From: an uncultured bacterium
GTDB lineage: Bacteria; Patescibacteriota; Patescibacteriia; Patescibacteriales; UBA12465
NCBI GenBank assembly: GCA_903945435.1
Contig: CAJAVM010000026.1
Location: 8,311-72,310, forward strand
Length of the DNA: 64,000 bases
Direction: 5' to 3'
Below are positions 56,777-59,326 of the stretch, one piece after another; positions within the stretch are counted from its first letter, which is position 1; the number at the start of each line of letters is the position of its first letter. The translations under genes and the position numbers were made by a program. The notes beneath the pieces are model-generated. The model saw only the letters and a program-made list of their open reading frames with translations. It did not search any database and had not been told where the DNA came from.

Positions 56777-57961
56777 CTAATAGAGGAATTCGCCATAAGG
56801 CGTTTTTAGATTTACTTCATTCCCTGGTTTAATTCCAGAGGCAGCAATTACTTTCCCTAAACGAGCAAAAGCGATGCCACAACTGTGAGCAGCTGTTTGT
56901 ACGGCATATGCTAATTCTGGTTTATTTTCTCCCACGATATCGATACCGATACCACAATTGAAATTTACAAACATATTCTCCCAGGTTTCTTTTGACTCTT
57001 GCTGAATCAGTTGAAAAATTGGCGAAGGGGTAGGCATTTCTTTGACGTAGCATACTCCATTACCCACATGAGCAATTTTAGTTGCTCCGCCTCCAGTATT
57101 CATGGAAATCCCATGAAGAAGATGCAGCGCCTTAATGGATTTTAATTCAATCAGAATTTCCCGAATCACGAATGCCCAGTGTCTTGTAGGTGAAAGGATA
57201 GCGTCGCCAACCGACATACCTCTTAAAACTTTAGGCTTGTCATTAGGCTTAAACCGTCCCTTATAAAAAATACCATCCCGTTTTAAAGTAGGGTACTTTT
57301 CGTTATAAGACGTATCCATTAAACAACTGCGCGCGAGAGTCAATCCGTTCGACATTATTCCAGAGTTTCTTTCTTGTTCCCAAACTGCACAAGCATCGCT
57401 ATGCAGACCCAAAATTACATCACCGGGTTTAACATTCCCAGTAACTACTTCAAACTTTTTAGCCCAAGCAGTAACCGCAATATCAAATACTCCGGAACGA
57501 ACCTGATCTTTTAGGTCGGCAGTTTCTCCACCAAGAAACTTAATATCGAAACCGCGACGATAATATAAATCAGCTAACACTGAGAAACGACGAGCTACCG
57601 CTTTCATTACAATTTCCTTAAGCTCGGGATTGAGATTAAGGTTGAGGACGTCAGTCATGAGCCAGGGACCGAACACAAATCCAGAAGCGGCGATATCGCC
57701 AGTGTTCATAGAAACGGCGTCATCCACCATTCCCTCAAAGATAGTATCGTCTCCAAATTCATAATAATGCAACAACCGCTGCACAAATTTTGAACCATCA
57801 CCATCCTGGTGCTGGGTTATGACTCGCCTTTTGTTCGTTGGGTCCGTCACAATATTAACGAACGCCCCTGGATACTCATTGTCAATGATATCCTTAAAAC
57901 TTTGTCGGACAATTGTCTTATTAGGATCAACTCCGAGATTTTCATACATACTTTTTGGCAT
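56777..57961 (-). CDS. AIR synthetase-like protein (PurM family, divergent)
   Basis: 394 aa matching the PurM pattern: YENLGVDPNK (compare Y.dAGVD), QDGDGSKF (compare tDGVGTK), VDDAVSMNTGDIAASG, GGETADL, SNGLTLAR, LSPTR, NTGGG, FNCGIGIDIV. Confidence 0.75.
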   Translation of the reverse strand: MPKSMYENLGVDPNKTIVRQSFKDIIDNEYPGAFVNIVTDPTNKRRVITQHQDGDGSKFVQRLLHYYEFGDDTIFEGMVDDAVSMNTGDIAASGFVFGPWLMTDVLNLNLNPELKEIVMKAVARRFSVLADLYYRRGFDIKFLGGETADLKDQVRSGVFDIAVTAWAKKFEVVTGNVKPGDVILGLHSDACAVWEQERNSGIMSNGLTLARSCLMDTSYNEKYPTLKRDGIFYKGRFKPNDKPKVLRGMSVGDAILSPTRHWAFVIREILIELKSIKALHLLHGISMNTGGGATKIAHVGNGVCYVKEMPTPSPIFQLIQQESKETWENMFVNFNCGIGIDIVGENKPELAYAVQTAAHSCGIAFARLGKVIAASGIKPGNEVNLKTPYGEFLY

Positions 57962-58009
57962 GCTTTGCGATTTTTTGGTTTTACAATAAAAACTTATTCA
58001 TCCAGATTT

Positions 58010-59326
58010 TTAATCCAATTGTTCAATTGCGTACTGTCTCAACATATACAAATACGGATTTTTTTGCGCCAAAATATTTAACGCTGCTAAAACCGCATTT
58101 TTACGAGACATAATAGTTAACAACGGAACCTGACTCGGAACATTGAGACTACTAAAAACATCAACTGCGTTTTCATCTGCAGTTAAAGGAACGGTAATCA
58201 CTGGCCAGCTAGTACGAGCGGCAAGCATCGGGCCTAAGCCATTGCTCATTCCAACCATAGCAATGATAACACCACCTTCGGGAGATTCGCCCAGAGTTAC
58301 TTCTAAAATATCGAGGCAAGCGCTAGGCGATTTATGACCGGAAACAATGATTTCACTAAAAGCAACCGAACGATGCGAAGGCAAGCCGCAGCCCTCAAGA
58401 TTCAGATCATTTTTCGAGCCTTTCCAGGTTACAATTCTTTGTTGAGGTAAAAGGAAAGCATCAGTCAACTTAGCAACCATGGCATACTTGCTACCGATTT
58501 CTTCCATGCCAGCATTATCACGGAAACATTGTTTGGAAACTTCTTCCCAAGCATTGGTCCGCAAACGCCAAGAATCATTATCGATTACATCAGCAATTAC
58601 TAATTCGCCGTTGGTCGTGATTCCAAATTCGATTTTAAAATCAATCAACCTGAAACCCAGCTGAGCCCAAGCTCCTTCCAAAATAAGGAAGGTTTTTCTG
58701 GTAATCTCCTCAATTGCAGTTAACACATCTTTTACATTTGATTCCAACTCCTTCACGGGTAAAAAATCTTCGGGATGAACTGAAAGCTTCAAAGAAGCAT
58801 TTTCATCCCAAGCCGGAAGTTTTGGATCCTGTAAATTCCAGGCCTCCATATCTTCATCATAATGAATGAATGGATCTTCAATTGGTGTTTGGCCAACTTC
58901 TTCTCCAGCCATCGTTTTAATGCTTTTCCCTGTTGTTTTCAAAAATAATTCAAACACTAAGGAATGAAACCGGAATGGCACCTTTTTTGATGTCGTTGCC
59001 AAGTTAGGAAACCGTTTTAAATAACTACCGACGGCATACCGACGAGCAATTACTTCTAACGGAACCATTTGACATTTTTCAGCTATGAATTCTGTAGTTG
59101 ATAACTGCTTAAAAAATGCTACCGGGATACCGGCGTCTTTTAAAAGCCTAAACACATTGCAGGTTGTTTGCGTTGCAAACACCGCCTTGTTTTACATCTG
59201 AGCAGTAAGCTCGGGAGTATCAAACTTCGTTAAAGCATCGAAGTTTTGCAGAATCACTGCATTTTCATCACTAGTCGCAAAAACCGCCTTGGTTTTTCCG
59301 CGATACAACTCTTGTCTTCTTTCCAT
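58010..59326 (-). pseudogene. PAICS-type bifunctional SAICAR synthetase (PurC) / AIR carboxylase (PurE) fusion, interrupted by one in-frame TAA (59194..59192)
   Basis: ATG 59326 opens MERRQELYRGKTKAVFATSDENAVILQNFDALTKFDTPELTAQM, followed by TAA. The same frame then continues [23 protein letters not shown]... and is the 390-aa track ORF from GTG 59182. The PurC core contains ADVIDNDSWRL, and the PurE-like C-terminal half contains GSKNDL, SGHKSP and GMSNGLGPMLAARTSWPVITVP. Pseudogene status is uncertain. Confidence 0.8.

Follow-up and report, generated by a model that had tools for sequence, protein, structure and literature searches.

A Patescibacteria purCE-purM operon carrying a fixed nonsense codon in its PAICS-like fused gene

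We studied a 64,000-nucleotide stretch of DNA from an uncultured bacterium (NCBI GenBank assembly GCA_903945435.1, contig CAJAVM010000026.1, positions 8,311 to 72,310; the whole stretch is called the window below), and in particular two adjacent genes at 56777-59326 on its minus strand, a fusion of purC and purE (purCE) and a purM-type gene. The two constitute a two-gene operon on a chromosome of the Patescibacteria, or candidate phyla radiation (CPR). We consider it likely that this operon stands for three successive reactions of de novo purine synthesis, that the fusion comes from an old bacterial family and that purCE has recently been struck by a nonsense mutation that is now fixed. This fixed nonsense codon, together with the exchange of purC and purE genes at the same locus among congeners, is what makes the locus notable locally. 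The initial annotation, made by reading the sequence, had placed a PurM-type gene next to a PurC-PurE fusion here, and both position and content were found to be correct.

In the scheme that we propose, the long-type PurM would convert formylglycinamidine ribonucleotide (FGAM) with ATP into 5-aminoimidazole ribonucleotide (AIR), the class II-type PurE domain would carboxylate AIR with CO2 directly to carboxyaminoimidazole ribonucleotide (CAIR) with neither PurK nor ATP, and the PurC domain would ligate aspartate to give succinylaminoimidazole carboxamide ribonucleotide (SAICAR). The other genes of the pathway would lie elsewhere in the genome, as judged from relatives. With the stop at codon 45 no full-length enzyme would be made, and at best re-initiation at a GTG codon would yield a 390-aa product devoid of the GKTK loop. 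The locus itself would be a hot spot of alternative purC/purE solutions among close relatives.

Operon structure and the nonsense codon in purCE

The features of the operon, all on the minus strand, are as follows.

59382..59410, candidate promoter of the purCE-purM operon (TTGACA, 17 nt, TAAGAT; 10 of 12 matches in a consensus scan), some 55 nt before the ATG of purCE
58010..59326, purCE reading frame, 438 codons plus the terminal stop (58010-58012)
59195..59326, purCE codons 1-44 by translation, N-terminal strands of the SAICAR synthetase domain
59288-59299, GKTK nucleotide-binding loop, with G10, K11, T12 and K13 invariant in the family
59192-59194, in-frame TAA nonsense codon (codon 45), separating the GKTK loop from the rest of the enzyme
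58442..59191, remaining SAICAR synthetase (PurC) domain, codons 46-295 (Pfam SAICAR_synt), including ADVIDNDSWRL
58013..58441, predicted AIR carboxylase (PurE) domain of class II type, codons 296-438 (Pfam AIRC and loop comparison)
58331-58342, 40s loop, SGHK
58229-58252, 70s loop, GMSNGLGP
56777..57961, purM, predicted long-type AIR synthetase of 394 aa, intact, beginning 48 nt past the purCE stop
56729..56758, intrinsic-terminator-like hairpin of 13 pairs followed by a T run, at the 3' end of the operon

The initial annotation had read an internal stop of the fused frame as X, and this was found to be a genuine TAA; both domains lie in one uninterrupted polypeptide in the family but not in the window allele. 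The identical split into products of 44 aa and 381/390 aa recurs in the gene calls of about ten assemblies (from Logan, per run, and from ENA and JGI), and the eight loci with DNA were identical to the window base for base across purCE, so that the premature stop is real and fixed. A sequencing or assembly error was rejected on the same evidence, as the assemblies come from different runs. No strain variation was seen across the copies, the sole variant contig (L003) differing only in nrdB. Recoding of TAA was also rejected: this codon is the commonest genuine stop in the window, where it closes 36 of 52 genes, and TGA and TAG serve as stops as well. A tRNA scan of the window returned no tRNA genes and no suppressor candidate. 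At the position of codon 45 all 119 homologues carry a sense residue, which is Lys or Glu in the closest ones, and hence the lesion is best described as a single-base nonsense mutation, TAA being one substitution away from AAA or GAA. Codon 45 is therefore a real and fixed nonsense mutation.

Apart from this codon, purCE is well preserved. No second lesion was found, and the conceptual product keeps all 96 of the positions that are invariant in a 28-sequence family alignment. Tajima relative-rate tests of the window against eight relatives with three outgroups gave one result at p<0.05 out of 24, and in that one the window was the slower lineage. Among the marks of a pseudogene, then, a fixed premature stop is present while further lesions, residue loss and acceleration are absent. 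As the invariant residues are kept and the branch is not accelerated, the lesion appears to be recent, or else the gene is still under constraint. A GTG codon lies 9 nt downstream of the TAA. Since the 390-aa product started there would be without the GKTK loop, its SAICAR synthetase activity is probably lost, and its PurE domain could still fold.

Disruption of the fused gene was encountered in about 4 of 85 surveyed copies, namely the window, L120, L025 and L090. L120 (2936-4387; JGI Ga0334884_1007535) carries an in-frame TAG at the conserved Tyr of the motif YAVGSYLKRFP, and L025 (~7880-9231) and L090 (~9782-11147) carry frameshifts in the fused purCE that are possibly assembly errors.

The PurC and PurE domains of the fusion

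The order of a PurC domain at the N-terminus and a PurE domain at the C-terminus, which the initial annotation had likened to animal PAICS, was borne out by Pfam matches to SAICAR_synt (PF01259, 1.3e-40) and AIRC (PF00731, 1.4e-18), the latter also upholding the assignment of the C-terminal half to AIR carboxylase. The best solved structures were animal PAICS enzymes with both domains aligned at about 1e-48 (Bombyx mori, PDB 4JA0, 4e-49; human, 2H31, 8e-48), and the fusion is 30% identical to human PAICS over the full length. The four motif comparisons with human PAICS in the initial annotation hold against a human sequence that we checked residue for residue with 2H31, and ADVIDNDSWRL is indeed identical in the two.

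The PurC domain was compared by alignment with PurC of E. coli, with human PAICS and with the PurC of L086, a CPR protein that is not fused. Nucleotide and CAIR contacts of the E. coli enzyme are made by K11, K13, R94, S100, D175, E179, R199 and R215, of which K11 and K13 contact ADP (PMC3261824). Counterparts of all eight are kept in the conceptual product, and the substrate-contact residues are alike in the window and metazoan PAICS. K11 and K13 of the window GKTK loop align with those of E. coli and lie upstream of the premature stop, in the 44-residue fragment. Compared with human and E. coli PurC the domain carries an insertion of about 60 residues that is common to the CPR family.

The class of the PurE half, which the initial annotation had proposed to settle by active-site signature, was read from its two diagnostic loops, compared below.

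Window: 40s loop SGHKSP, 70s loop GMSNGLGP
Human PAICS: 40s loop SAHKGP, 70s loop GRSNGLGP
Fusions of Alphaproteobacteria and Verrucomicrobiota: 40s loop SIHKEP, 70s loop GRSNGAGP
E. coli PurE (class I): 40s loop SAHRTP, 70s loop GGAAHLPG

The 40s loop of the window, whose S, G, H and K do not vary within the CPR family, fits the class II pattern S-x-H-K rather than the class I pattern S-A-H-R, and the 70s loop reads S-N-G-L-G-P without the His of the class I G-A-A-H-L-P-G. Searched in isolation, the domain gave 1e-12 with PAICS and about 1e-7 with PurE enzymes of class I. On the two loops, the PurE half is of class II type by its sequence, though divergent. It differs from metazoan PAICS in a Gly for the Ala of SAHK, besides a substitution in the 70s loop that is weighed below. 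The comparison was extended to a stand-alone enzyme, the Treponema denticola PurE (3RG8), which we take to be the characterised bacterial class II enzyme. Stand-alone class II PurE proteins, as in T. denticola (3RG8/3RGG) and Archaeoglobus (PMC3261824), are unfused, and they share with the window the His-Lys motif and a predicted carboxylation of AIR that does not need PurK. The E. coli set of PurK, class I PurE and short PurC covers the identical two pathway steps but with separate genes, class I loops and ATP spent on the intermediate N5-carboxyaminoimidazole ribonucleotide (N5-CAIR).

A bacterial family of fused purCE genes

The initial annotation regarded the metazoan-type architecture as an oddity among bacteria, a view that does not survive database searching. 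More than 4000 homologues of the fusion were recovered, and almost every one of the top 120 was a fusion at full length (about 430-460 aa); those among them with an organism name all belonged to Parcubacteria, Moranbacteria, Falkowbacteria or Patescibacteria. With each species represented by a single genome, a scan gave at least 490 confirmed matches to fused copies, the best 80 of which included many CPR but also Xanthobacteraceae/Pseudolabrys and other Alphaproteobacteria, Chthoniobacter and other Verrucomicrobiota, Tepidisphaerales and Polyangiaceae. Over the full length the window protein is 50-70% identical to CPR fusions and 38-41% to those of non-CPR bacteria (Xanthobacteraceae, Verrucomicrobiota, Planctomycetota, Myxococcota), and it shares all the invariant residues of the bacterial family, from which it differs in its nonsense codon and in its neighbour. 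Human PAICS is 28-38% identical to each bacterial group and shows no preference for CPR.

In a neighbour-joining tree the window sequence lay inside a CPR-only clade, non-CPR bacteria were nested among other CPR sequences, and human PAICS joined on a long separate branch outside all bacterial fusions. As far as the sequences go this tree, which holds one eukaryote and has no bootstrap, excludes a recent transfer from eukaryotes to CPR, and it does not settle the origin of animal PAICS. Both best hits and tree placement therefore fall among bacterial fused purCE genes, the outcome that the initial annotation had named as speaking against an unusual origin. It had further spoken of genomes with complete pathways, and this part is a matter of general background: complete purine pathways are expected in Xanthobacteraceae/Pseudolabrys, Chthoniobacter, Tepidisphaerales and Polyangiaceae.

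Annotation pipelines already name these proteins. JGI calls many of the homologues 'phosphoribosylaminoimidazole carboxylase/SAICAR synthase', other pipelines use 'AIR carboxylase family protein' or 'phosphoribosylaminoimidazolesuccinocarboxamide synthase', and both window proteins carry JGI names (PAICS-type carboxylase/SAICAR synthase and purM). No paper on a bacterial or CPR PAICS-type fusion was found in the literature searched. Judged by its sequence, the fused gene is a member of a widespread, already annotated bacterial family with the domain order of animal PAICS.

Five loci (L015, L019, L020, L025 and L026) are titled 'uncultured Gammaproteobacteria', 'Bdellovibrionales' or 'Hyphomicrobiales', yet their purCE genes are 48-53% identical to that of the window. 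Those of L015, L019, L020 and L026 were included in the tree, unlike that of L025, and sit within its CPR-only clade. The bins are probably mislabelled or contaminated.

The PurM-like protein

The partner gene, described by the initial annotation as PurM-like, could be placed in the PurM family by structure matches and signature motifs. Its product matched PDB 3MDO (1.8e-40) and 3KIZ (9.4e-40) across most of the length, both being about 390 aa and, we presume, Bacteroidetes proteins. Aligned with E. coli PurM, it keeps DGxGxK, GGETA, SNG, TGGG and FNCGxG and has two insertions. The family to which it belongs, here called long-type PurM, is annotated as purM by JGI and mostly as 'hypothetical' by NCBI.

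We examined 80 metagenome loci centred on this family. In 19 of the 80, PurL came within 4 kb of the long-type PurM gene; inside that distance 4 loci had PAICS-type PurCE or PurC, 3 had long-type PurC and 2 had PurH. In the purCE locus L017, PurB, PurCE, PurL and long-type PurM are found inside 16 kb. This company of PurL, PurC(E) and PurH supports an assignment as AIR synthetase, and the sequence of the window protein likewise points to a long-type PurM with that activity. A mosaic purM, in which recombination would have brought in purCE, was considered and rejected, the N-terminal part of PurM being most similar to the sister species.

Pathway context and turnover of the locus among relatives

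The initial annotation had described a mini-island, and in this respect it has to be corrected. In relatives the fused purCE adjoins PurB (18 loci), PurH (6), PurL (5), canonical PurM (4) and long-type PurM (4), and one representative per neighbour type was confirmed with Pfam except long-type PurM, which had no Pfam match. The window copy is next to long-type purM (about 4 of 85 loci) and not beside the commonest neighbour, purB. On the contig of a sister species a large PurL lies 9 kb from the purM-nrdAB block. Because the copies of relatives adjoin purB, purH, purL and purM, purCE would be part of a normal de novo purine pathway, and the purCE-purM pair appears to be one part of a pathway whose genes are dispersed, and not a module standing by itself.

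Small CPR genomes had also been said to lack purine synthesis. This stands for some of them, several CPR genomes having been reported without it (PMC11809585, PMC5220378), but not in general, for a complete de novo module for inosine monophosphate (IMP) is reported in 32% of 399 CPR genomes (PMC11608272). Compact pur clusters were seen at L086:3791-12240 and L089:2877-14579, labelled Saccharibacteria or Patescibacteria; that of L086 comprises PurL, PurQ, class I PurE, PurM, an unfused PAICS-type PurC and PurB, from which it follows that PAICS-type PurC also exists unfused.

The closest relatives carry a different solution at the same place. Two sister species share the order purM-nrdA-nrdB-secA with the window; their PurM is 78-81% identical to that of the window, the contig L094 has NrdB, SecA and NrdA at 98%, 90% and 83% identity, and a sister-species isoleucyl-tRNA synthetase (IleRS) clusters at 90% with the IleRS of the window. 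At the position corresponding to window ~58000-59450, L094 (8120-9757) and a 19.5-kb contig (ERZ1426830) have no fusion. Upstream of purM, on the opposite strand, they encode instead a separate long-type PurC (~360 aa) and a class I-like PurE with the loops SQHRNT and GWANHLTG. The same purC/purE arrangement and flanking genes recur in a more distant genome, L099, and a purCE-type gene stands directly upstream of purM, as in the window, in L007, L113 and L103. A further contig, L095, which encodes the identical PurM protein, has neither purC nor purE upstream.

The class II fusion on the one hand and class I PurE with long PurC on the other replace each other at one locus among congeners. L103, L007 and L113 favour an ancestral purCE-purM arrangement, and L094, L099 and ERZ1426830 share the divergent purC/purE pair with conserved flanks; on these sequences the distribution of fused and separate genes would need at least two replacement events. 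We looked for a second long-type purC in the window species and obtained no match closer than 66% identity to the sister gene, and two long-type purC candidates that were checked both came from other species.

N-terminally truncated homologues

One of the relatives bears directly on the fate of a broken purCE. In L103 (8731-9861; ENA ERZ21878447 ctg45196l) a 376-aa PurCE homologue (P0371) lies directly upstream of a purM that is 64% identical to the window purM. It begins exactly at the window break point and aligns with window residues 44-430 at 28% identity. Its open reading frame (ORF) is intact and has signals of its own, with an ATG, an AGGAGG site, a promoter and a terminator. The protein has lost the equivalent of R199, the catalytic His-Lys and the SNGLGP loop. 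It is a singleton from one long-read contig, with a single 44%-identical relative (P0374) in a search of 1.84 billion representatives; P0374 and P0411 are likewise N-terminally short homologues with degenerate PurE domains. On sequence grounds such truncated derivatives may be maintained for another role. To the wider idea that CPR purCE repeatedly erodes into N-terminally truncated, degenerate but ORF-intact neighbours of purM, with the window allele as a first step towards a PurE-only or non-catalytic PurM partner, we give little credence.

Weighing of alternative explanations

Several results weigh against a functional three-step operon in a complete pathway. The PurM-like protein stays below the thresholds of the family models, with 81.5 bits against a cut-off of 236 for TIGR00878, 20.2 against 24 for Pfam AIRS and 19.6 against 23.1 for AIRS_C. 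3MDO and 3KIZ were called PurM by their depositors, one of them as 'putative', and we know of no activity test of either protein. In the PurE half, the Arg of the GRSNGLGP loop is replaced by Met, and the domain is so divergent that it matches 3RG8 at E = 2e-3, compared with 2e-27 for human PAICS. No test of the enzymatic activity of any bacterial fused purCE member was found in the literature searched, and the nonsense codon may leave the fused enzyme non-functional now. PurB, PurH, PurL, PurQ, long-type PurC and class I PurE were undetected by tblastn in the 64-kb window, and no further pur gene emerged from reading all its ORF translations with a Pfam scan of the unclear ones, in agreement with the initial annotation; nor was a PurK-like ATP-grasp protein noticed in that reading, in which no PurK query was run. 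It is from relatives that we infer a complete pathway in this genome.

The initial annotation had left open a relic of a lost pathway. In such a case the lineage would be abandoning purine synthesis and living on salvage, purCE having been disabled first and purM being due to follow. The fixed TAA, by which the ATP-binding loop is severed from the remainder of the enzyme, agrees with it, as do the lack of other pur genes within 64 kb, the presence in the neighbourhood of salvage-type genes for a NUDIX protein, a PfkB kinase and a protein resembling nucleoside deoxyribosyltransferases, the disruption of about 4 of 85 fused genes, the degenerate homologues P0371, P0374 and P0411 and the CPR genomes reported without purine synthesis. 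But purM is intact, purCE shows no second lesion, no lost invariant position and no accelerated rate, and the sisters keep purL, purC, purE and purM at the locus, which argues that the clade as a whole uses the pathway. The nonsense codon lends the idea partial support, and we regard a relic as a minor though real possibility. A related proposal takes the 390-aa product as functional. It would act on scavenged intermediates, whether as an enzyme of the PurE step alone or as a partner of PurM that does not itself catalyse a reaction. It can draw on the GTG placed 9 nt past the TAA, on the two short homologues P0374 and P0411, and on the L103 protein, which starts at the window break with its own expression signals and an intact ORF despite 28% identity; that protein is, however, a near-orphan from one contig, and the window product keeps every catalytic residue, which is easier to reconcile with a fresh lesion than with a new function. 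We think such repurposing quite unlikely.

The idea that a CPR bacterium had gained a eukaryote-like module (metazoan PAICS) by horizontal transfer, also raised at first, was suggested by the animal enzymes as top PDB matches, by the 11-residue motif identical in human PAICS and by the common domain order. It is largely refuted by the identities, the tree and the native composition of the locus. Hundreds of bacterial fusions (38-70%) are closer to the window than human PAICS (30%), and as the latter is 28-38% identical to all bacterial groups and joins on a long branch, a eukaryote-derived module is unsupported. The matching motifs are active-site residues, kept as well in the unfused L086 PurC and in the fused PurE domains of Alphaproteobacteria and Verrucomicrobiota. 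This explanation we consider very improbable indeed. A purCE-purM operon of three consecutive purine steps, with an old bacterial fusion recently interrupted by a nonsense codon, remains the account that we favour.

Genomic surroundings

The operon is flanked by nrdA/nrdB on one side and by a giant repeat surface-protein gene on the other, as the initial annotation had noted in naming ribonucleotide reductase genes and a giant adhesin gene. The gene content of the window is typical of a CPR chromosome (elongation factor EF-G, ribosomal proteins, a mur/ftsW/mraY block, MreBCD, SecA, several tRNA synthetases and nrdAB). The assignment to this group rests on near-identical and sister proteins, which NCBI names 'Patescibacteria group bacterium'. 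The guanine-cytosine fraction is even along the window, 0.38 at the locus and 0.32-0.41 in the rest, so the composition of the locus is unremarkable. A chimeric contig had been named as a possible pitfall; the sister species have purM-nrdA-nrdB-secA in the same order, so a chimera at this point of the contig can be dismissed.

The variant contig L003 (ERZ18650788) matches the window over 6.2 kb except for 50 mismatches within ~320-330 bp of nrdB (window 53390-53708, the 3' part of the gene), 41 of them synonymous, and this tract is either a strain chimera at the contig end or a recombination tract.

The giant repeat-rich surface protein (59478-64000, minus strand) runs off the window end and exceeds 2829 aa in longer assemblies, several assemblies ending inside its gene. 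When DNA past the window end was sought, every assembly proved to stop within this gene. It has many repeat modules of ~190-200 aa, weak matches to PKD and Big_13 Ig-like domains and a 15-glycine run (a 12-bp tandem repeat at 60466-60506). Between IleRS and SecA, at 48587-50238 on the minus strand, lie nucleotide-housekeeping genes for a nucleoside 2-deoxyribosyltransferase-like protein, an inorganic pyrophosphatase and a NUDIX-ASCH fusion, the start of the latter overlapping the 3' end of SecA by 65 nt. A sister species has four NUDIX genes and MazG in this slot instead.

Implications

The architecture of animal PAICS is not specific to eukaryotes, being abundant in CPR and present also in free-living Proteobacteria, Verrucomicrobiota, Planctomycetota and Myxococcota. 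This bacterial spread bears on the origin of the animal enzyme and on the use of PurE class as an argument for drug selectivity. As many CPR lineages carry purine-synthesis genes, a lone purCE-purM pair is no evidence of an exotic module. A fixed nonsense codon in an otherwise pristine gene, along with the other purC/purE genes of the sister species, offers a small and clear-cut case of pathway steps being acquired, exchanged and lost in reduced genomes, and it has a practical side too, for CPR metabolism rebuilt from annotations would score this broken purCE as 'present'.

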